A stretch of DNA of 32,000 bases from Pyrodictium delaneyi (GTDB lineage: Archaea > Thermoproteota > Thermoprotei_A > Sulfolobales > Pyrodictiaceae), in assembly GCF_001412615.1 (NCBI RefSeq), contig NZ_CP013011.1:1590001-1622000 (forward strand). The letters are read 5' to 3'. Below the pieces are notes generated by a model. That model searched no databases, was not told the DNA's origin, and saw only the letters and a program-made list of their open reading frames with translations. Positions 4,112 to 30,548 of the stretch are shown in pieces (positions within the stretch are counted from its first letter, which is position 1; the number at the start of each line of letters is the position of its first letter). Both the position numbers and the translations under genes were made by a program.

Positions 4112-4561
4112 CTACTCTCCGGCATAAAACCGAACATCGTTCCTATAGTACGAGCAGTATCCTGTCGCTGTACACGCCTCAACGAAGACTAGCTGCAAGT
4201 CATGACTAGTGCTGGCTAGTTTTGATAGCTTAGAGTCTAGACATTTGTACACTTCACGTACTAGCAGCTCCGCTGTAGCATCCTTGACGCCTAAGACTTC
4301 ATTTAAGTAGACATGATCAAGACTCCTCACACACTCGCCCAAAAACCTCTCGAGTACATAATGGTCTATGACAGTGTTGTCGGCACCCAACGGACCCTCG
4401 ACGCAAACACGCACTCTATAGTCGTGCCCATGAAGCGCGGCTGCCGAGCCACCGAGGCTCTCGACACGGAGTGCAGCCGAGATCCAGACCGATACACAGA
4501 CGCCGAACGGCATCATGCATCCCTTTCCTCCCTTGTCACTATGCCCCCGCCCTGAAGCCAC
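4112..4561 (-). CDS. 6-pyruvoyl-tetrahydropterin synthase / QueD-family (6-carboxytetrahydropterin synthase-like) protein
   Basis: LHGHDYRVRV matches the PTPS/QueD HGH-x-Y motif, and LDHVYLNE plus ATAELLV match the family's LDH..LN and pT.E.la motifs. The real start is probably the ATG-ATG at 4516/4513 (MMPFGV...), because the first 15 codons (MASGRGHSDKGGKGC) are low complexity. Confidence 0.75.
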   Translation of the reverse strand: MASGRGHSDKGGKGCMMPFGVCVSVWISAALRVESLGGSAAALHGHDYRVRVCVEGPLGADNTVIDHYVLERFLGECVRSLDHVYLNEVLGVKDATAELLVREVYKCLDSKLSKLASTSHDLQLVFVEACTATGYCSYYRNDVRFYAGE

Positions 4562-11410: not shown

Positions 11411-11863
11411 ATGTATAGAAAGACAGAGTTTAGTCATCTCGTAGAAGGAACAATAGTGATAATCGACCTTGATAGGTTCAGTGAAGTTGTAGAGGAGAGG
11501 GGATGGAGCGAATACAGCCCAAACCCGGCTACAGGGCTTCTAACAAGACTCATAGAGATGTTTGCAAGGAGATGGCAAGGTGTCATTATCTACGGCTTCG
11601 ACGAAGAACGTGGCACCGAGGAAGTAGTTATAGAGATACCGCTAGTTGAACCCGAAGAACTTCTACCGGATCTAGAGAAGATAAAACAAGAGCTAAACAG
11701 TATCGGAGTTGGAATCACCATCGTAGCCCTTAAGGGGTATGTGCTTGGCAAACCTGCCGCAGATAGAAGGGAAGCCTATACAGCTACACCATTTAGGCGT
11801 AGAGCTCTAGCACTTCTAAGAAAGGCTAAACGCCGTGGAGGCAACACGGTGATTATAGCCTAG
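11411..11863 (+). CDS. Minimal GGDEF-like / nucleotidyl-cyclase palm-domain protein (150 aa)
   Basis: IVIIDLDRFSEVV resembles the GGDEF hhhDlDhFKxxND strand. YGFDEERGTEEVVIEIP sits at the GGDEF-hairpin position. The C-terminal ALALLRKAKRRGGNTVI resembles ALYxAKxxGRNxV. The order and spacing fit a single palm domain with no sensor domain. The assignment rests on motifs only. Confidence 0.55.
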   Translation: MYRKTEFSHLVEGTIVIIDLDRFSEVVEERGWSEYSPNPATGLLTRLIEMFARRWQGVIIYGFDEERGTEEVVIEIPLVEPEELLPDLEKIKQELNSIGVGITIVALKGYVLGKPAADRREAYTATPFRRRALALLRKAKRRGGNTVIIA

Positions 11864-11948: not shown

Positions 11949-13151
11949 TTATGCCTCCTCCACCGTGGTATAGTTTAGCGCTGTATAACTTGGCACACGT
12001 TCCACAGTTTTAACCTCAACGTAGCTGCTACTCTCCGCACTTGGCAGCTTAGCAACTCCTAGGAGCCCTGCAAGCTTAGCTTCAAGCTCATCCGGGGGTA
12101 GCTTCTTCAAAGCCCTTGCAGCTTCATAGAGCTTCGCGAAGGGTTTGCTCGTTCCCCGGTATGTAGCGCCATTACTTGCGACTTCGAGAAGTATCCACGC
12201 GTTGAATAAAGCTCGTGCTTCAAAACTGTTAACAAGACTTTCATGTGTCACGTTAAACAAGCTAGAAGCTTTCTTGACAAATTCCCGATAGATGTCTACC
12301 TCGTTTTCACGCAATGTTGCTGGACCGAAGCGTACTTTTTGTCCACTTATATGGCGTTCACCGAGCCCTGGGACTATTATCTTACCAAAGGCCGCCTTAT
12401 GTCGCCAGGTTTGCGTATCACCGCTATCTATACCAATTATCTTTAAGAGAGGTATCACTGCTGCAGAAGCGAGGCCAAGGGCATGAAGCTTGCCACGCCA
12501 CAACTTACGTAGAAGAGTGAGAAATAGGACTGCCTTGAGCCGCGAACCTTTACCCGATCTTTGCATGAAATGTGGTATCAAACCGCCAACGGCAGCAATA
12601 CACGAGTGCGGCTCATAACTGCGTAGCTGTAGTCGCAGCGACTCGCCTACAGCCATATGGAATACGGGAATTAGTCTTCCTTCCTCTACGAGACCTCGTA
12701 GCGTATTCTTAAGCGACATATAGCTGGATATTGTTCTTGCTATCTTCCGTGCTCTGGTCTCATTATCGTCAAGTGGGCCTGGAGGATAATCCAGGCTTAT
12801 ATAATAGTCTGCATCAACTTCCCTGTAAACCTTTGCTATTTTATAAGTACCCGGATCGATACCTCGTCTAAGAAACTGGTAACCACCACTGTCGATCCAC
12901 AATTCTACGTCATCATTATCTATTCCGAGTAACTTGCGAAGACCCCTCCCACGTACACGACTTAAACCAACCCTTAGTATATCGTAAGCGTTAACCATTA
13001 TCCCAGATACTGGGAGGGTAAGCCATGGATGAGGGACCGCGTTTATAGGCGTTCCTAGAATCAGTTTGAATCCGCCCATGGTAGTGCGCCAAGTGTTAGG
13101 TATTATCAACCACGATGATAGACTAAAGGTATTATCCACAGGAACGAACAT
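11949..13151 (-). CDS. tRNA-guanine transglycosylase (TGT) superfamily catalytic-domain protein without Zn site or PUA domain (ArcS/DpdA-like)
   Basis: Motifs are colinear with remembered archaeal ArcTGT. WIDSGGYQFL matches EVDSGSFQL (catalytic Asp). ISLDYPPGP matches FLDIPTPP. AAVGGLIPHF matches PIGGVVPLL. LHALGLAS...IGIDSGDTQTW matches HLFGAGHP...GVDLFDSASY (second catalytic Asp). No CxCxxC...H zinc motif follows, and the protein ends about 130 aa later without C1/C2/PUA domains. An alternative start is MGGFKL at 13079. Confidence 0.65.
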   Translation of the reverse strand: MFVPVDNTFSLSSWLIIPNTWRTTMGGFKLILGTPINAVPHPWLTLPVSGIMVNAYDILRVGLSRVRGRGLRKLLGIDNDDVELWIDSGGYQFLRRGIDPGTYKIAKVYREVDADYYISLDYPPGPLDDNETRARKIARTISSYMSLKNTLRGLVEEGRLIPVFHMAVGESLRLQLRSYEPHSCIAAVGGLIPHFMQRSGKGSRLKAVLFLTLLRKLWRGKLHALGLASAAVIPLLKIIGIDSGDTQTWRHKAAFGKIIVPGLGERHISGQKVRFGPATLRENEVDIYREFVKKASSLFNVTHESLVNSFEARALFNAWILLEVASNGATYRGTSKPFAKLYEAARALKKLPPDELEAKLAGLLGVAKLPSAESSSYVEVKTVERVPSYTALNYTTVEEA

Positions 13152-13549
13152 TGATATAATAAACCCGAGTTAAAGCATACAACTATAAGTCTTCATCTAG
13201 AGGACATAGCTGTGGGGATGAAGAGGCTCGAAAGGGCAGAGACCCGGCAATAGTGCCGGGTCAACCTATGAAGAGCCGCGCAGCACAGACCCTCCTACGA
13301 ATGCCAATTATTAGACACTTTTACTCACTCCTTAAGCTACACTTAGGAAGCAACTATTGATGAATAATACATTAGAGAACTCAGGTACATGCCGAAGAAT
13401 CCTAGCCTCGAGTGAATCCTATTCTTATTAGCCGCCTACTATGAGACTAATATAATGTGTATGTATGGATGATGACGTTACGCACTCTTAGAGCCCTTTC
13501 CATTCCATAGCTTTCGAGAAAGTCTACAAGGGCGATGAAAGAGGCCACC

Positions 13550-13972
13550 TCACTGACACTCAATTACACATTCGTAGGATGAGTCTTTACATTCTACCCT
13601 AGCTATGACCTCGCCTTTCTCTCCATTCATAATACTCAACCTGGCTGTACCACAGCCTAGCTCCTTAACGACCAGTACATTGCCCAATCTGTTGTCTCGT
13701 TGCTCCTCAAGTACCACATTCCTCAATCCCGCCCCACTATATAATGCGTATATATCCATAGCCAATAGTCTAATGGTGTGGATCATTCTGGCTTTGTCTT
13801 CTCTACATAGCCTCAATCCTATGGATTTACAAGATATTCTCAGCAACGTCTCTATGGGAGAATCATAAGGATCTATATCCGTAGCTCTTCCTGTATTTGC
13901 AGCAGACAATGCTCCTTGCACTGTGACAGCCCTAACACGGGCCAAGCTCGTTTCCACCCTACTTTGGCTCAT
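13550..13972 (-). CDS. Hypothetical protein (140 aa) with C-terminal C-x6-C-x3-C, translationally coupled to the radical-SAM gene
   Basis: Its start overlaps the stop of the upstream radical-SAM gene by 14 nt on the same strand. The C-terminus is ARVECKDSSYECVIECQ. I recognise no family. Confidence 0.55.
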   Translation of the reverse strand: MSQSRVETSLARVRAVTVQGALSAANTGRATDIDPYDSPIETLLRISCKSIGLRLCREDKARMIHTIRLLAMDIYALYSGAGLRNVVLEEQRDNRLGNVLVVKELGCGTARLSIMNGEKGEVIARVECKDSSYECVIECQ

Positions 13973-14726
13973 AGTAGAACCTAGGCTTTAACCCTAGAAG
14001 TTTTAGTCTACGCTTAGCAGGTGAATAGAGTACCAGAGGCTCTACTTCTATGTTCTCAACTATATCGGGTCCTGCAAGCTCAACTAGCTCCTCGATCAAC
14101 TGTGCCCAACACTTCTCAGAACCAAATGCCGCAAACAAAGCTACATGGAAGCTTAGGCCATAGTCGGCTAGATGTTTTACGGCATTAAGGGGGTACTCGA
14201 AAGCTCTAGGCATAGCACCCGTCAGTTTCGTGAATAATTCTGGACTACACGCTTTTATAGAAATACGGACATGTAGTCTATTATACCTGGCTAGGGTTCT
14301 AGCATACTCGCGCCGGGCCCCAATAAGTATACCATTGGTCTCTAGTATGAAGAGCCTATCACTAGTAGACTCAAAATGATCTAATAGTTTTACTAGATGT
14401 TTGAACCCTATAGTTGGCTCGCCTCCTGAAAGCCTCACATATCTATAACCATGAGCCTTGGCTATGCTCTCAAGTCTCTTATAGGCCTCCAGGGGGTGTA
14501 CAAAGAATCCTATCCTGAGATCATCGCGTGGTCTCCCTGTCCAACAAAATGCACAGCGCAGATTACATCCAACTACATCACCCACCGCGCTTCCGCCATA
14601 GAAGCGGCTCCCACGGAAACGATAGTACTTGCGACGAGTACCTTGGAGGACACGCTGCTCTATTAGATCAGCTAGCTTAACTGGGTCAAAACCCCTTATC
14701 TCCGCCTCTTTACTCATCTCAGACAC
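13959..14726 (-). CDS. Radical SAM enzyme (small NrdG/PflA/QueE/RaSEA-like activase-type fold)
   Basis: CNLRCAFCW is the CxxxCxxC cluster motif, VRLSGGEPT is the SAM-binding GGE motif, and ILETNG follows. There is no SPASM or twitch Cys cluster in the C-terminal half. The start is GTG at 14726 or ATG at 14717. Confidence 0.85.
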   Translation of the reverse strand: MSEMSKEAEIRGFDPVKLADLIEQRVLQGTRRKYYRFRGSRFYGGSAVGDVVGCNLRCAFCWTGRPRDDLRIGFFVHPLEAYKRLESIAKAHGYRYVRLSGGEPTIGFKHLVKLLDHFESTSDRLFILETNGILIGARREYARTLARYNRLHVRISIKACSPELFTKLTGAMPRAFEYPLNAVKHLADYGLSFHVALFAAFGSEKCWAQLIEELVELAGPDIVENIEVEPLVLYSPAKRRLKLLGLKPRFYYEPK

Positions 14727-14934
14727 GCCACCGGTATAAGCTATGACAGCATAGTGGCGTTAGTTTGCGCACCTCTAGGGGGCCTTATATATGGGATTCT
14801 AGTTCTGAACACGTAATAATGGATGAGTGAAAGAACCCCGGCGGAGCCTCCGCACTATCAATAAATCTTATGGTACATGCTTAGAGGGCGCGGAGGGATG
14901 AAGAGGTCCTATCCTGACTGACTCACGGTTATGT

Positions 14935-15831
14935 TTACCGTAGTATTATATTGAAGCTTTTCTCTGGTACATTGAACAGTTTGGCTACTACATTACATGG
15001 TGCTGCAAAGAGAAACAACAATGGCGCCTCCGGAGGGTTATTGTGGAAATATAATGTCTGTATATCACCCTTGACTACTACCAGTGATGCTTCATTTAAC
15101 TGTTCATAGATATGCTCGTTCTCATCCCTCATAACTGTCGCTGCATCCGACCCTATGTCTATGACCTCCGACAGAAGGTCAGCTACACCGGTTACCTCCA
15201 GGTCATTTGCTATTACATAATCCTCATATCTTCCACTACGTGCTACCCCGATTACTCCGAGGCCAAGCTCGTCCCGCAAAAGCTTAATGAATATAGAATC
15301 ATAAGGCAGCTCGAATACAGACCCGAACATATAGTATACAATCCCGCCATTCTTCTTCATCTCATATAACTTATCTATAACAATCTTTGTATCATCTCGC
15401 CCTATCTTGTGCGATGATCCTAAGGCAGCTATGTCTACTACTGTAGGCGGCTCTGTCAGCAACTTGTCGGGAGTGTCTAGAGGACGGAAACCTGTGGCAA
15501 GACTAGCCGCCTTTAGAGCATCCGCTATCTTTCTATCAAGAGGTTTGTCTTTTATAGACTCTTCAATTGACTTAGCTCGGGATATAGCCTTGTTTAAGTT
15601 CCGCTGAATTATCTCCTCATATGGGGAGTCGTTACCCACTAGGGTCTTGAGCCTCCTAAACGAGACCGTGGCTAGCTCAGCTACCTCTATGTCTGGACCT
15701 ATGTAGAGATTTACAGCCTCAAGGAGTTCACGGTATATAGCTAGTTTTCTAGCATTATCGTTCTCGCGAGTATCCAGTTCGACAGCTCTCTTGAAGAGTG
15801 TACAAGCCACACAATAAGGTGTTACGTGCAA
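14935..15831 (-). CDS. DUF89 / ARMT1-like (damage-control phosphatase family) protein, apparently degenerate active site
   Basis: The N-terminal MHVTPYCVACTLFKRAVE matches the DUF89 subfamily-I ECxxCxxRQ start. The ~298-aa length and the VVKGDIQTLY position match KGxxNxE. The DNxGE metal motif position reads MFGSVFELPYD. Confidence 0.5.
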   Translation of the reverse strand: MHVTPYCVACTLFKRAVELDTRENDNARKLAIYRELLEAVNLYIGPDIEVAELATVSFRRLKTLVGNDSPYEEIIQRNLNKAISRAKSIEESIKDKPLDRKIADALKAASLATGFRPLDTPDKLLTEPPTVVDIAALGSSHKIGRDDTKIVIDKLYEMKKNGGIVYYMFGSVFELPYDSIFIKLLRDELGLGVIGVARSGRYEDYVIANDLEVTGVADLLSEVIDIGSDAATVMRDENEHIYEQLNEASLVVVKGDIQTLYFHNNPPEAPLLFLFAAPCNVVAKLFNVPEKSFNIILR

Positions 15832-16728: not shown

Positions 16729-17298
16729 ATGGGCATAGACAAGGAAAAGATTGAACATGCTGTAAGACTAATCCTTGAGGCCATCGGGGAAGACCCAGAC
16801 AGAGAAGGTCTTAGGGATACGCCGAGACGTGTAGCAGAGATGTTCGAGGAGATCCTCGCGGGGTACAAGGATAGCGAAGAGTATACATGGTTCACCGAGA
16901 CTAGCGATCTCGTTGTAGTCTCTGGTATAAGGTTCTATAGCTTATGTGAACACCATATACTACCATTCTTCGGTGTCGCACATGTAGCCTATCTACCAAG
17001 GGGCCGGGTCATAGGACTATCGAAGATCGTGCGCATAGTTAACAAGTACGCGAGAAGGCTACAGATACAGGAACGTATGACACAGCAGATAGCCGAGGAG
17101 GTTTCACGCGCAACTGGTTCGCCAGACGTTATGGTGGTGACAGAGGCTGTACACCTTTGCATGGCAATGAGGGGTGTGAGGACGCCAGCACCGACCGTGG
17201 TTGCAGCTGTTCGTGGCGCATTTGCGACACGGAGCAGCCTTAAGGACGAGGTCTACAGAATTATAGAGCCTCACAGGTTCCGGGGCTTTCCACTTTGA
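16729..17298 (+). CDS. folE: GTP cyclohydrolase I (FolE type IA)
   Basis: Motifs present are [49 protein letters not shown] and RLQIQERMT. The minus-strand ORF 16632-16895 is a shadow. Confidence 0.95.
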
Positions 17299-17735
17299 GT
17301 TCCACGCACTACTTCATATAATGCAATTGCGAGCGAAGCCGCAACATTATAGCTCATCCCTTGTACGACTGTGGGTATTTTTGCCACAGCTTTGGGCTCC
17401 GGTATAGCTTCTACTACGTGTTGTGGTATACCGTAATCCTCAGCACCTATCACGACTACTATTCTTTCATGGCTAAACTCTACTTCATGCAGATACTTTG
17501 TACCATATGTCTCTAATACTACATACATTGCTTCACCTATAGCATTGACAGTTTCTTCCATACTCTGGACTATGTGTAGTCTTGTACGTGCTTTTTGCTG
17601 AAGCATTTCAAGCTTATAGTCTACGCCAGGCCGGGGTATAACGTAGAGGTCAGCCCTGATAGATGCAGCCAGAGCCGCCACGTCATGGAGGTTTTGGGGG
17701 TTCTTGGGATGGTAGAAGATAACGTTGACCTTCAC
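17271..17735 (-). CDS. SPOUT-superfamily (SpoU/TrmH-TrmL-like) RNA 2'-O-methyltransferase
   Basis: The ~154-aa product carries [11 protein letters not shown] and [23 protein letters not shown] (SpoU motifs 2 and 3). The start is GTG at 17735. Its 3' end overlaps the folE 3' end by 28 nt (convergent). Confidence 0.8.
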
Positions 17736-18566
17736 GTGGTAATCACCACCCCTCCATCAATATTTGATGCTGCAGTACTTGCCCGTACACTCTATACTGC
17801 CCTGGGAACAGAGGGGTGGAAGCTAACCATTATAGGTATGGGTAGACGTCTGCCATTGAAGCTGATAAGTGAGGCACGTCTTCCAGTATCCGTAGCATTA
17901 TCAAATGTATCTATGGAGCTTGAAGCAGAGCCCCCTGGACCCGTCTATATTGTCGACAATAGAGGCGAGCCGGCCTGGAACCTAGAACCTCCCAGGACAA
18001 TAATAATAGATTATGGAGGAACCTTCGCTGCAAGCTTTCACGATGCAAAGAGGGTAAGAGGGCTTGGAGCACCGAGCTTAACTTACGAGGCTATTACCGT
18101 ACTCTACGAGTTCTTCGTTCGAAGGAAGAGTTGGAGCCCTGACTACTCTAGTGCGTTCTCGCGGGATATCCGTAGTGGCGTATATCTTGCTAGAAAAGTG
18201 CTAGAGGCTATACAAGTGTTCGACAATTACATCGTACTCGAGCCAAGCGTTATAGCCTTCACTCTACGTAAAGTATACCTTAATAAGGGCTTGCTCGTTG
18301 ATCCCGATACATTCAAGCTCGAAGTAAACGTTGTAGACGGGGCCGTAGAGGAGCATATTACGCTCAAGACGTACTCTATTCGCGGTCTACGCAGCATAGG
18401 AAACATTGAGGTTAAGTTTAACGGCGAAGTGCTTGAAATACATGACCAAGAGGGCATGGCCTACCGGATAGTTATTGACGCATACAGACGTATAGCGTGC
18501 TGTGCATCCGGACTATGTGTTGGCACCGAGGAGGATGACGTCAATATTCCTAGACTAGAACCATAA
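17736..18566 (+). CDS. Hypothetical protein (start uncertain; the open frame begins at TTG 17595)
   Basis: A long protein-like ORF. The first 141 nt of the track ORF overlap the 5' end of the divergent SPOUT gene. In-frame GTG at 17736 or ATG near 17838 are more plausible starts. I recognise no family. Confidence 0.55.
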   Translation: MVITTPPSIFDAAVLARTLYTALGTEGWKLTIIGMGRRLPLKLISEARLPVSVALSNVSMELEAEPPGPVYIVDNRGEPAWNLEPPRTIIIDYGGTFAASFHDAKRVRGLGAPSLTYEAITVLYEFFVRRKSWSPDYSSAFSRDIRSGVYLARKVLEAIQVFDNYIVLEPSVIAFTLRKVYLNKGLLVDPDTFKLEVNVVDGAVEEHITLKTYSIRGLRSIGNIEVKFNGEVLEIHDQEGMAYRIVIDAYRRIACCASGLCVGTEEDDVNIPRLEP

Positions 18567-28474: not shown

Positions 28475-29089
28475 ATGGCGATAGACCGGGATCGGGTTCA
28501 GAAACTTGACAAGATGCTTGCTGCACTAAAGTCTACACCACGTACAGGGTGGATGCTTCGCGGAGTTCATGCAGCTATAGCTGAGAGTATAGCCGAACAC
28601 ATGGCCGAATCAACAGTACTAGCACTTGTAATCGCTGAGAAACTAAGAGAGAACGGCGTAGAAATTGACGTGCTTAGGGCGGCAACTATTGCCGCTGTAC
28701 ACGACCTATCTGAATCAGTAATAGGAGACATTGTGAAACTAACTGCAGATGCTATAGGAAAGGAGCGCAAAGAGCAGCTCGAACTAAACGTAGCTAAGAA
28801 CACGCTTGGGGACGACAACATGCTCTATGCATTGATAAAAGAGTACATTGAACAGACAACTCCTGAAGCACGTGTGGCCAAACTGGCGGAGATTCTGTCG
28901 ACTCTTCTACAAAGCTTACGTTATATTATGCAAGGATATAGAGGTGTATCAGAGATTGCTTGTTCATCAGCACGCGCTATAAAGAAGATGATAGAAAACG
29001 CTAGCTGGCTAGCTTCGGTAAGAACCATCGTCGAGGACTATGTGAATGAGGGCCTTAAGGCATGCAATAACCCAAATACTTTAATATAG
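28475..29089 (+). CDS. HD-domain phosphohydrolase, YfbR/HDDC2-like 5'-deoxynucleotidase family
   Basis: TPRTGWMLRGV...ESIAEHMAESTVLALVIA...AAVHDLSESVIGDI matches the R-x-GW...ES-x-AEH...HDL-x-E-x-x-GD signature. Confidence 0.85.
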   Translation: MAIDRDRVQKLDKMLAALKSTPRTGWMLRGVHAAIAESIAEHMAESTVLALVIAEKLRENGVEIDVLRAATIAAVHDLSESVIGDIVKLTADAIGKERKEQLELNVAKNTLGDDNMLYALIKEYIEQTTPEARVAKLAEILSTLLQSLRYIMQGYRGVSEIACSSARAIKKMIENASWLASVRTIVEDYVNEGLKACNNPNTLI

Positions 29090-29744
29090 AAGAATGAGTA
29101 GTCAAGGAACGCCATTCATTACATTTGTTCATTAAGAGAATAGAAGCATTGCAAGTATTACATTGACGAGCTGCCCCTACTTACATCTTGTTGTCAAGAA
29201 ATAGTACTTATGTTTAGTATACTATCCATGGTGTGCCAAAGACTAGTCATTTGGTAACAGGCGATAGCCAGCGGGCACTCATTGCAACAACTGGTTTTCC
29301 TGACACGACTCTACTAGTATCGTTAGACTGTAGTACTATATATTGTATGAGCATGATACTTAATAACTATTGGCTGTCTTAGTGTTCGTCAGGTTACAAG
29401 GATGTTAGTTGATATGCCCGTCTCTTAATGTAGAGACAGGCGATAGACGTAGAAGACGGATACCGGGAAAGAGTAGCACTGCTTCGGGTCTATCTTGGGG
29501 TCAATGTATTTATGACTTGTGTATACGAGATGTCGGAGGGGCATGATCTAAGAATTGTGGCTGGGCATACTAGAGCTAATGTATATACTAGCATATTAAT
29601 TATATTGCCGAACTTTTGGTAGGCTCTAACATATGTAGGGATTAATCTAAATGTTAGTTGAGTGAAGTCCACAGGTATGTGAAAACCGATATTATTTAGG
29701 TATTACTTTAACCAATTGTGTATAAACAAGTATGTTTTAACGGT
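29090..29744. other. AT-rich (roughly one-third GC where counted) 655-bp region without a convincing ORF; contains short internal direct repeats
   Basis: My count for 29101-29160 gives 20/60 G+C, against ~50-60% in flanking genes. acaggcgatag occurs at 29258 and 29437. atgttagttga occurs at 29403 and 29652. The only ORF listed is a 60-aa minus-strand one (29490-29672) of doubtful composition. Confidence 0.6.
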
Positions 29745-30413
29745 TTAGAATGTATCATGTATAGTGTTTGATATGATTTCGTTTGTGAGTCGAGTCCCTT
29801 TCTGTGCCCACTCTATAGCGTGGATAGGAGATATAGACTGGACTACTGCACCTAGTCGTCTGGCTAGAAGTGACAACGCGTAGAGGAGTAGAGGGACAGT
29901 TCCCCAAATCCGCTTTCCTGTAAGCTTTGCTAGAAGCTTCTTGTAACGTGTCGCAAGAAAGTTTGCCAGCTTTTGTTTAGCCTCATTACCGTTTGCCGCG
30001 TAGAATATTCTAGACTTTATAGCTAATCTTTTCGCGCCACGAGTTAAGCCCAGAGGTGATATGTAGAGATAAGCCACATCTGCAGTATTGAAATATTTGC
30101 CCCTAAGCTTATCGAGGAAATGCTGCAGCCTCTTTATCCTAGTGGAGAACTGTGATGGTGACGTAGGTCTGGATTCTTGTGTTGATACGTATATGGCTAC
30201 TACTAGGGGGCTTGACCCAGGTATATCTATGACTACTATATGCAACCTCATATCGCTCGAGCTATGGACGGATACAGGCTTTACTACATGCGCCGCTCCT
30301 GATGCTTCAACCACCTTCGCTATGTGACGTGCTCCCCCGAGCAGAGGGAGAAGTATCTTGTTAGCTTCCGCTAGCGCTCTTGCCTTGCGCTCTTTGCTAG
30401 TCACTATCGTCAA
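29745..30413 (-). CDS. Hypothetical protein (222 aa), orphan-looking
   Basis: The ORF is protein-like, with a basic/helical N-terminus, a beta-rich core (HIVVIDIPGSSPLVVAIYVSTQES) and a hydrophobic helix (WGTVPLLLYALSLLARRLG). I recognise no family. It is flanked on both sides by unusually long non-coding DNA. Confidence 0.6.
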   Translation of the reverse strand: MTIVTSKERKARALAEANKILLPLLGGARHIAKVVEASGAAHVVKPVSVHSSSDMRLHIVVIDIPGSSPLVVAIYVSTQESRPTSPSQFSTRIKRLQHFLDKLRGKYFNTADVAYLYISPLGLTRGAKRLAIKSRIFYAANGNEAKQKLANFLATRYKKLLAKLTGKRIWGTVPLLLYALSLLARRLGAVVQSISPIHAIEWAQKGTRLTNEIISNTIHDTF

Positions 30414-30548
30414 TGACGTTCACCGTTTTGGCGAAGATTAGTACCCTAGCCTCGTGCTCCTGGGAATAACTTGAGTTCAGCCAGAACTATTGAGAATTGA
30501 TTACACAGGTACCGGACAGGAAGAGGAAGGCTCCACTTACTGCTGAGC

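Follow-up and report, generated by a model that had tools for sequence, protein, structure and literature searches.

A putative DpdA-like guanine transglycosylase gene among apparently independent neighbours in the chromosome of Pyrodictium delaneyi

The presence of 7-deazaguanines in DNA is documented in bacteria (the Dpd system), in phages and in archaeal viruses. The bacterial transglycosylase DpdA was found as a tgt paralogue without a PUA domain, linked to genes of DNA metabolism (PMC5699537). It requires the ATPase DpdB; its Asp95 is the proposed general acid/base and its Asp256 the proposed nucleophile, mutation of either abolished guanine exchange, and Asp130 and His181 have been modelled as hydrogen-bonded to the base (PMC10164549). 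Among crenarchaeal viruses, STSV2_15, STSV1 ORF18 and their homologues in SIRV rudiviruses have been named DpdA (Hutinet 2019, Cui 2023), and the virion DNA of STSV2 contains dCDG at 0.04% of G (PMC10516641). No report of a 7-deazaguanine in the DNA of archaeal cells was found in the searchable open literature, nor any description of cellular crenarchaeal DpdA-like genes or of their association with HerA in that same searchable, incomplete literature. The gene considered here lies in a stretch of 32,000 nucleotides from Pyrodictium delaneyi (contig NZ_CP013011.1, positions 1,590,001 to 1,622,000), called the window below and supplying all coordinates unless another locus is named. The window is chromosomal, Pyrodictium-like DNA, its closest relatives being a metagenome-assembled genome (MAG) of P. 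delaneyi (84%) and P. occultum (79%). The gene encodes a protein with the fold of the tRNA-guanine transglycosylases (TGT):

11949-13079, minus strand: gene for a putative TGT-fold, DpdA-like guanine transglycosylase, 376 amino acids (aa) from the ATG at 13079; a 400-aa open reading frame (ORF) extends to 13151

It is on balance probable that this region is a lineage-specific juxtaposition of independent units, in which the TGT-like gene would encode a DpdA-like 7-deazaguanine exchanger whose target is most probably DNA. The other units are a DUF89 gene, a radical-SAM gene paired with a small ORF (orf140), and one, perhaps two, candidate small RNA (sRNA) genes accompanied by a promoter-like element. 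Of all these, the TGT-like gene alone has a credible link to 7-deazaguanine.

The TGT-like protein matches no Pfam family, PF01702 included, and scores far below the cut-off of the TgtA model of NCBIfam (TIGR00432, E 6.7e-5, 21.5 bits, cut-off 350). Its AlphaFold2 model, made with 28 homologues, has a pLDDT of 84.8 and a pTM of 0.82, the C-terminal 28 residues being disordered, and the top 50 Foldseek matches of the model in the PDB are all ArcTGT or bacterial or eukaryotic TGT (E 5.6e-12 to 5e-9), with ArcTGT 1iq8 the best. Asp87, Asp121, His165 and Asp245 (numbered as in the 400-aa ORF) are invariant in 28 of 28 family members, the motifs being DSGGYQ, LDYPP, PVFH and DSGDTQTWRHKAAxGK; among 49 broader relatives the first two Asp are invariant, and the His and the last Asp are at least 90% conserved. 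This set aligns with Asp95, Asp130, His181 and Asp256 of DpdA, and with Asp95, Asp130 and Asp249 of ArcTGT, which has Gln at the His position. After the nucleophile Asp the sequence reads PGLGERHISGQKVRFGP, with no Cys motif for a zinc site, and the protein ends past the helical cap; DUF5591, PUA and the ArcS model NF040592 found no match in it. Judged by sequence and model, it is a genuine, divergent and catalytically intact TGT-fold enzyme of putative activity. A preliminary description made from the letters of the window had proposed just such a stand-alone, non-canonical enzyme, neither ArcTGT nor ArcS, lacking the CxCxxC zinc motif, the PUA and C-terminal domains and the PCx3KPY motif, and the profile and structure searches support it in each respect.

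The family to which the protein belongs extends well beyond Pyrodictium. An exhaustive profile search returned 1180 cluster representatives at E <= 1e-3, many of the distant ones keeping CxCxxC and matching PF01702, TgtA, DpdA and, more weakly, ArcS. By these profiles the TGT superfamily has a large, unnamed branch of stand-alone proteins, within which the TGT-like protein falls into a sub-clade that lacks the zinc motif and is widespread in Thermoproteota. The family profile itself matches ArcTGT (9e-10) and, marginally, bacterial DpdA (0.028); the window protein has no match to the DpdA model NF041059 at E <= 0.1, and 34 of the 49 broader relatives match that model weakly. When canonical ArcTGT was sought in the fetched loci, members of the TGT-like family were all that matched.

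The nearest described relatives of the zinc-less clade are, by sequence comparison, the DpdA proteins of the crenarchaeal viruses STSV1 and STSV2 and of rudiviruses. When 50,697 phage and virus records were searched with tblastn, STSV1 and STSV2 ranked first (E about 1e-28), ahead of a spindle-shaped virus and, after it, rudiviruses. The BLASTP alignment with STSV2_15 (E 5e-37, 30% identity over 273 aa) extends over the full length of the viral protein, through the segment that lacks the zinc motif and into the C-terminal helices. Against the hidden Markov model of the family, STSV2_15 scores 189.5 bits and fragments of ArcTGT and of bacterial DpdA reach 42.8 and 17.6 respectively; a score of 189.5 bits would rank STSV2_15 among the best approximately 30 representatives in a library of 1.8 billion proteins. 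The TGT-like gene would thus be a new cellular member of the DpdA/TGT superfamily, of a type otherwise found in crenarchaeal viruses, and a link to 7-deazaguanine and DpdA, which the preliminary description had offered as a candidate, emerges as the best reading both from this homology and from the pairing with DUF5591 genes in other archaea.

That pairing was seen when all ORFs within 6 kb of 86 orthologue loci were clustered. Beyond the Pyrodictiaceae, the commonest neighbour is a HerA-like DUF87 ATPase of ~520 aa (PF01935, E 1e-36), present within 6 kb in 19 loci, which belong to Vulcanisaeta, Caldivirga, MAGs of Thermoproteaceae and Desulfurococcales, and an Aenigmatarchaeote; in 18 of the 19 it is directly adjacent. 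Its position varies from upstream on the same strand (gaps of 1-83 nt) to divergent or convergent, and in Thermoproteales the HerA-like/TGT-like pair stands alone among metabolic genes. A NurA-domain protein joins HerA in two loci. One of the fetched loci (L034, 3568-10837) has, running divergently from the TGT-like gene, a string that encodes HerA, NurA, a PAPS-reductase-like protein, DUF5591, an unknown protein and TatD; in another (L070, 2593-11178), DUF5591 and the TGT-like gene are convergent with NurA, a HerA-like gene and a gene for a 1420-aa protein without a Pfam match. The gene strings of L034 and L070 are island-like. The HerA neighbour was considered as part of a canonical herA-mre11-rad50-nurA operon, and this was rejected: Pfam searches of selected neighbours in seven HerA-bearing loci found no Mre11 or Rad50, NurA is present in only two loci, and the pairs of Thermoproteales have metabolic genes around them. 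The HerA-type ATPase is a possible analogue of DpdB.

The second recurrent neighbour is a protein consisting of DUF5591 only. Its gene lies immediately next to the TGT-like gene in six loci (Njordarchaeota, Aenigmatarchaeota, Bathyarchaeia, a Nitrososphaerota MAG and a Thermoprotei MAG) and close by in three others. These proteins retain the C1 motif of ArcS, PCx3KPYx2S, and have no PUA domain. In STSV2, likewise, the STSV2_15 gene is followed by STSV2_16, a DUF5591-only ArcS2 gene. The chromosomal relative of viral DpdA suggests where the dpdA and arcS2 genes of crenarchaeal viruses originated. In Pyrodictiaceae, stand-alone DUF5591 proteins (P0405 of a Pyrodictium sp. and P0414 of Pyrolobus) are encoded near cdvABC, unlinked to the TGT-like gene. 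In a single Pyrobaculum MAG the TGT-like gene is present three times (L052, L055 and L067); two of these copies are found amid short ORFs without relatives in the other loci and may be integrated viral or mobile ones.

That guanine is exchanged for a 7-deazaguanine is suggested jointly by the TGT fold with its intact catalytic set, by the specific relationship to viral DpdA, and by DUF5591 and HerA/NurA recurring as neighbours. A DNA substrate is favoured because the same reasoning, from a PUA-less tgt paralogue and its DNA-metabolism neighbours, led to DpdA itself; from this evidence we infer the activity, the inserted base, the DNA substrate and the roles of any partners. The exchange would be of the TGT/DpdA type, with Asp87 as general acid/base and with Asp121 and His165 reading the guanine edge; Asp245 would attack C1', forming a covalent ribosyl-enzyme intermediate, and a 7-deazaguanine base (preQ0 or CDG, from the archaeosine pathway of the cell) would then be inserted, most probably into DNA. 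In Pyrodictiaceae the DUF5591 (ArcS-core) protein encoded elsewhere in the genome may modify the inserted base, and in other lineages the HerA-like ATPase may be an ATP-dependent helper, taking the role that DpdB has for bacterial DpdA.

Several points weigh against this interpretation. For the family as a whole, transglycosylase activity and a DNA substrate are predicted from sequence, and the action of STSV2 DpdA on DNA is itself only inferred, the modification being low (0.04% of G). The association with HerA is absent from the loci of Pyrobaculum, Thermoproteus and Pyrodictiaceae. The Pyrodictiaceae gene looks like a vertically inherited core gene in a housekeeping setting, with no adjacent ATPase, nuclease or DUF5591 gene, and such a setting would also fit an RNA-modifying role. 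Split forms of ArcS exist in which the TGT-like N-terminal domain and the C1 domain are separately encoded (PMC10516641, PMC5485725), and therefore the DUF5591 association does not discriminate DNA from tRNA. As to the independence of the units, the adjacency of radical-SAM and TGT-like genes persists across several Pyrodictiaceae genera and could be a lineage-specific functional link.

The split forms of ArcS give rise to the main rival, which we consider unlikely: that the TGT-like protein is the N-terminal part of a split, minimal archaeosine synthase that would, with DUF5591 and perhaps the radical-SAM protein, convert preQ0-15 tRNA to archaeosine. It would account for the DUF5591-only proteins with the ArcS motif that adjoin orthologues in at least six loci and occur in Pyrodictiaceae genomes, and for a gene that behaves as vertically inherited amid housekeeping surroundings; moreover, some archaea encode the N-terminal or C1 domain of ArcS separately, and most Crenarchaeota are without full-length ArcS (PMC10516641, PMC5485725). 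It fits less well with the profiles, in which the window protein has no NCBIfam ArcS match and the broader relatives match TgtA in 49 of 49 cases (best 1.9e-40) and ArcS in 20 of 49 (best 2.4e-10). Nor would a scaffold for amidino- or lysine transfer obviously need the full catalytic set that is invariant here. The DUF5591 partners lack a PUA RNA-binding domain and resemble viral ArcS2, and the associations with HerA, NurA and viruses point to DNA.

The RNA-modifying role could also take the form of a second RNA-guanine transglycosylase, without PUA-type domains, that places preQ0 elsewhere than at G15 or in another RNA. The intact catalytic residues, the best solved structure match (to ArcTGT) and the housekeeping setting of the gene are all compatible with this; ArcTGT reportedly functions without its PUA domain, a result attributed to Sabina and Soll in 2006, and a multisite ArcTGT has reportedly been described (PMC4770233). 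Even so, we give this enzyme very little probability: the family is far nearer to viral DpdA than to ArcTGT, HerA and NurA recur among its neighbours, one Pyrobaculum MAG carries additional copies amid ORFans, and we know of no report of an extra deazaguanine position in crenarchaeal tRNA.

If the preferred reading of a DpdA-like exchanger acting on DNA is carried further, one may tentatively suppose that in many Thermoproteota, including Pyrodictiaceae that grow near 100 C, an inherited DpdA-like enzyme writes dPreQ0, dCDG or dG+ into the chromosome of its own cell, that the ArcS-core protein tailors the base and that a HerA-type ATPase, alone or together with NurA, serves some lineages as ATP-dependent helper or restriction arm. 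We hold this to be possible rather than likely; if true, it would be the first 7-deazaguanine DNA modification system of cellular archaea, and crenarchaeal viruses would probably have drawn their DpdA genes from it. The locus, ordinary in its organisation, points to possible 7-deazaguanine in the chromosomal DNA of hyperthermophilic archaea, and the conservation of a chromosomal relative of viral DpdA in these organisms makes the question of deazaguanine in archaeal DNA directly testable in cultured carriers, namely Pyrodictium occultum, Hyperthermus butylicus, Pyrolobus, Vulcanisaeta and Pyrobaculum.

The remaining features of the window that bear on the argument are the following:

13101-13162, minus strand: TATA-like A/T-rich boxes 5' of the start of the TGT-like gene, from an alignment of four sequences
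13212-13295, plus strand: C/D-box sRNA-like gene, antisense to the cluster, with a layout common to the window and 15 Pyrodictiaceae loci
13469-13556, plus strand: candidate second C/D-box sRNA, weak, with boxes and guides conserved in the three closest relatives
13550-13972, minus strand: orf140, a small, fast-evolving protein with positional homologues in relatives and no family match
13959-14726, minus strand: compact radical-SAM enzyme with the cluster motif CNLRCAFCW (PF04055, E 3.7e-18)
14935-15831, minus strand: DUF89 or ARMT1-like gene of the damage-control phosphatase family (PF01937, E 8e-31)
16729-17298, plus strand: GTP cyclohydrolase I, FolE (PF01227, E 6e-67; above the cut-off of the NCBIfam FolE subfamily model)
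4112-4561, minus strand: PTPS-fold protein (PF01242, E 1.7e-15)

A six-frame ORF list reproduces the four consecutive minus-strand ORFs (15831-14935, 14726-13959, 13972-13550 and 13151-11949) from which the preliminary description had built a four-gene module, as well as the 14-nt overlap that it reported between the radical-SAM ORF and orf140. Gene order in relatives gives a different picture of how these genes belong together. The surroundings of TGT-like orthologues were fetched; a scan of one genome per species returned 110 loci, and 80 of these were retained. Gene order in P. occultum, Hyperthermus butylicus, Pyrofollis japonicus and one related metagenomic contig is collinear with that of the window throughout the surrounding segment: class-III aminotransferase, SpoU, FolE, pyrophosphatase, DUF89, radical-SAM, (orf140), TGT-like and glutamate dehydrogenase follow one another and, in fetched loci that are long enough, the order continues to dCTP deaminase and PTPS, making a Pyrodictiaceae block of ~17 kb. 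The radical-SAM, DUF89, FolE or pyrophosphatase genes are found at most 10 kb away only where the TGT-like protein is at least 54% identical to that of the window, and within those loci the entire block is collinear on contigs that are long enough. The adjacency of DUF89, radical-SAM and TGT-like genes is absent from Pyrolobus, from several other Pyrodictiaceae MAGs (it is missing in L017, L021 and L026), and from 63 of 63 loci with less than 52% identity; in L025 the DUF89 and TGT-like genes remain and the radical-SAM gene is missing. In Pyrolobus fumarii, a member of the same family, the TGT-like gene lies between an aconitase-family gene and the gene for ribosomal protein L35Ae, and the radical-SAM orthologue (P0110) is elsewhere, adjoining genes of arginine and lysine biosynthesis. 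With the same tool the radical-SAM family gives 2028 matches and the TGT-like family 59, a difference of ~30 times, and five radical-SAM relatives from other lineages (Pyrolobus, Ignicoccus and three more) have unrelated neighbourhoods. Because the adjacency is confined to the collinear block, and because the radical-SAM family is broader and stands in unrelated contexts elsewhere, the gene order is taken to reflect shared ancestry of a collinear chromosome segment and not conserved functional linkage.

The four genes might still form one non-canonical 7-deazaguanine module, with a radical-SAM enzyme that would work, like RaSEA or QueE, on the base handled by the TGT-like protein and with DUF89 and orf140 as accessories. 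The genes are co-directional, with the overlap between two of them; the order DUF89, radical-SAM, (orf140), TGT-like occurs in 14-18 Pyrodictiaceae loci (Pyrodictium, Hyperthermus, Pyrofollis and MAGs); FolE is three genes away; and the ArcS of Euryarchaeota requires a radical-SAM partner (PMC11298593). We regard this as decidedly improbable, given that the adjacency is that of a single collinear block, lost in Pyrolobus, L017, L021, L025 and L026 and found in 0 of 63 distant loci; that the radical-SAM family is so much broader than the TGT-like one and occupies unrelated contexts; that the radical-SAM protein reaches no QueE-level profile match, has no RaSEA-level one among the matches listed and is nearest to PflA in fold; that a 470-nt spacer with an antisense sRNA-like gene and promoter-like boxes separates the radical-SAM/orf140 pair from the TGT-like gene; and that the composition of the genes is ordinary. 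Nothing within the window shows the radical-SAM, orf140 or DUF89 protein participating, and the co-functional module of the preliminary description is not supported: several outcomes that it had named beforehand as contrary to the module are what the analysis returned, gene order being unconserved in relatives, the radical-SAM protein lying in an unrelated, generic group, and the composition being that of the window. The case is a caution for annotation, in that collinearity among close relatives should not be read as an operon.

The radical-SAM protein has a generic, PflA-like core by profile and predicted fold. Its best NCBIfam matches are to MoaA, ScmF, PflA and NrdG, all generic and far below the cut-offs (MoaA, 1e-13, 51 bits, cut-off 325), and the best QueE model gives E 3.7e-5 and 23.5 bits against a cut-off of 260. 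There is no sequence match in the PDB; the AlphaFold2 model (pLDDT 94.8) finds pyruvate formate-lyase activase as its best Foldseek match (TM 0.68), followed by SuiB, NifB, spore-photoproduct lyase and viperin, with no QueE structure among the top 50. Profile cut-offs and fold thus rule out QueE, which would have completed a FolE-QueD-QueE set. An identification as RaSEA, which probably has an NCBI family model to judge by a product name in PMC7465815, drew no support from the matches listed. The best 25 of 40 NCBIfam matches of the window protein are all generic (E >= 1e-13) and include no RaSEA model; nor do the 25 families matched by most of 35 members of the radical-SAM family, from which no specific family emerges.

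The 2028 matches of the radical-SAM family span Thermoproteota, Korarchaeum and Nitrososphaerales. In three unrelated lineages the gene adjoins one for a conserved Cys-rich protein of ~290 aa (L102:5762-6658, L103:2840-3739 and L104:3979-4830), which has an HhH-GPD-like segment, GPK(V/L)ADAYLLF, and weakly resembles OGG and EndoIII (E about 0.007); this neighbour hints that the radical-SAM protein may act on nucleic-acid bases or in repair. The same Cys-rich protein is encoded in one Pyrodictium MAG (L017:7012-7938), 1.1 kb downstream of the TGT-like gene. The 384-aa gene that lies between the two in L017 was inspected as a possible radical-SAM gene and is not one, its product being hydrophobic throughout; it looks like a membrane transporter.

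By its 14-nt overlap with the radical-SAM gene, orf140 is probably translationally coupled to it. Homologues occupy the same position in P. delaneyi (47% identity), P. occultum (41%), Hyperthermus (38%) and three MAGs (29-32%), and none was detected in Pyrofollis; orf140 thus evolves fast, with 47-29% identity compared with 74-63% for the radical-SAM protein. It has no Pfam, NCBIfam or PADLOC match. Its identification as a degenerate DUF5591 protein was ruled out, there being neither the motif nor a profile match. The DUF89 protein matches PF01937 over residues 4-290 (107.8 bits, cut-off 25) and misses the cut-off of the NCBIfam equivalog models for damage-control phosphatases (46 bits against 440). 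It adjoins the radical-SAM gene only in the collinear block of Pyrodictiaceae, and nothing ties it to deazaguanine.

The preliminary description counted the TGT-like protein as 400 aa and the stretch before its gene as a 398-nt non-coding gap. The 400-aa ORF is real and the stretch after orf140 is free of ORFs; the gene itself almost certainly starts at ATG 13079 (11949-13079, 376 aa), since MGGFKL is the beginning of most homologues, the model shows disorder over residues 1-25 of the long ORF, and DNA conservation in the spacer alignment extends up to that ATG (Met25 of the 400-aa ORF). The true spacer is therefore 470 nt, and it carries the sRNA-like gene and the TATA-like boxes. Four sequences, those of the window, the P. 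delaneyi MAG, P. occultum and Hyperthermus, were aligned across it, and they contain blocks that are better conserved than the adjacent orf140. No Rfam family (at its gathering score) and no tRNA (ARAGORN) was found in the window, and a riboswitch, a tRNA or a known RNA in the spacer was rejected for want of such a match. A C/D-box sRNA on the opposite strand fits the conserved block better than an element of the 5' untranslated region, because promoter-like boxes fall between the block and the start codon.

From its sequence, 13212-13295 of the plus strand is plausibly an archaeal C/D-box sRNA gene. Its 5' half has GGGG, the C box AUGAAGA, a 12-nt guide GGCUCGAAAGGG, the D' box CAGA and a hairpin; its 3' half has the C' box AUGAAGA, an 11-nt guide GCCGCGCAGCA, the D box CAGA and CCC, so that GGGG and CCC make the terminal stem. 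The window shares this layout with 15 related Pyrodictiaceae loci, the guide cores GCUCGAAAGG and CCGCGCAGCA being near-invariant and the D'-C' loop ranging from 6 to 33 nt; in most loci a hairpin, of differing sequence, is possible in that loop. A generic C/D pattern occurs once in the window (0.01 expected by chance), and the RNA folds better than shuffled sequences (z -3.6). Compared with the archaeal consensus (RUGAUGA and CUGA, ~12-nt guides), spacing and order fit, the boxes are variant and there is no Rfam match. The boxes vary as RUGANGA and CNGA, the deviation being confined to base 5 of C and base 2 of D. These two bases form the U-U pair of the kink-turn. The expected target sequences of the guides are CCUUUCGAGC and UGCUGCGCGG.

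A second C/D-box sRNA is possible at 13469-13556, overlapping the stop codon of orf140 (AUGAUGA, CGUUACGCACUC ... GAUGAAA, GAGGCCACCUCA, CUGA). Its C box (AUGAUGA) and D box (CUGA) are canonical; its D' and C' boxes are poor, its fold is no better than that of shuffled sequences, and it is conserved in only the three closest relatives. Between the first sRNA-like gene and ATG 13079 are the TATA-like boxes TTTATTATAT (about 13153-13162) and GATAATA (about 13101-13107), conserved across the four aligned sequences, which may be a promoter of the TGT-like gene itself. Set apart by an antisense sRNA-like gene and a conserved promoter-like element, the TGT-like gene probably forms a transcription unit of its own, and an apparently empty spacer hides a conserved, sRNA-like gene.

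In composition the four genes do not stand out: their GC and third-position GC (GC3) contents lie within 1.6 standard deviations of the 29 genes of the window, and their codon usage is no more distant than is normal for genes of such length, so the distinct composition hinted at in the preliminary description has no counterpart in these figures. Housekeeping genes make up the remainder of the window (glutamate dehydrogenase, pyrophosphatase, a class-I aminoacyl-tRNA synthetase, an aminotransferase, a GHMP kinase and dCTP deaminase), and PADLOC has no defence-system model for the TGT-like, orf140 and DUF89 proteins and gives weak, generic viperin-model matches for the radical-SAM protein. The ordinary GC, GC3 and codon usage, the housekeeping flanks and the PADLOC result together rule out a genomic island or foreign DNA. 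GTP cyclohydrolase I, reported in the preliminary description, is present at 16729-17298 as FolE and is a possible source of a 7-deazaguanine precursor; it is mentioned as context, with membership in a unit not implied. Of the PTPS/QueD-like protein reported at 4112-4561, the PTPS fold stands. The motif of QueD is Cx3HGH. The QueD label is unsafe because AALHGH stands at that position, and the protein may differ from the enzyme of the preQ0 pathway.

Elsewhere in the window, GC falls to 0.41-0.43 at 28500-30500 (0.49 window-wide), a stretch that covers an HD-domain gene, 650 nt poor in ORFs and a 222-aa ORF without a family match, and in which no notable repeats were found. On the plus strand, 11411-11863 encodes a 150-aa protein without a family match, convergent with the TGT-like gene and staying near it in at least ten Pyrodictiaceae loci, even across an inserted FeoB gene. 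Also on the plus strand, a 323-aa ORF without a family match (17595-18566), which overlaps the SpoU-methylase gene of the opposite strand by ~140 nt, is conserved at 36-67% identity in all collinear relatives.

Compared with the described systems, the locus resembles the ArcS-RaSEA pair in that a TGT-like protein is encoded near a radical-SAM gene and organisms of the same family possess a DUF5591 (ArcS C1) protein. It differs in that the TGT-like protein has no C1 motif, PUA domain or ArcS profile match, the radical-SAM matches are generic with no RaSEA model among the matches listed, and the adjacency is unconserved outside one lineage. ArcTGT/TgtA (1iq8) is the best solved structural match (Foldseek E 5.6e-12), with the catalytic Asp aligned, but the TGT-like protein reaches 21.5 of 350 bits, has neither the zinc site nor the C1, C2 and PUA domains, and is 15-16% identical when structurally aligned. 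With bacterial DpdA (PDB 7ui4) it shares the TGT-fold TIM barrel without a PUA domain and the same three Asp, with His where ArcTGT and bacterial TGT carry Gln, and orthologues in some archaeal lineages adjoin an ATPase gene in the way that DpdA adjoins DpdB. The similarity is marginal, however (E 0.028 by profile; the NCBIfam DpdA model does not match the window protein), there is no ParB-like DpdB nearby, no DpdC and none of the DpdD-K restriction genes, PADLOC finding nothing, and the neighbouring ATPase of archaea is of the HerA/FtsK type whereas that of bacteria is of the ParB type. From viral DpdA the window gene is distinguished by its chromosomal, housekeeping, collinear position, by ~85 additional aa (an N-terminal strand region and a C-terminal tail) and by the lack of an adjacent DUF5591 gene; it appears to be vertically inherited across Pyrodictiaceae and not a viral anti-restriction gene. 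The two nevertheless share the motifs DSGGYQ, LDxP, PVxH and DSxDTxxxRxKA, both are without the CxCxxC zinc motif and the PUA domain, and in other archaea a DUF5591-only gene flanks the cellular gene just as STSV2_16 follows STSV2_15.

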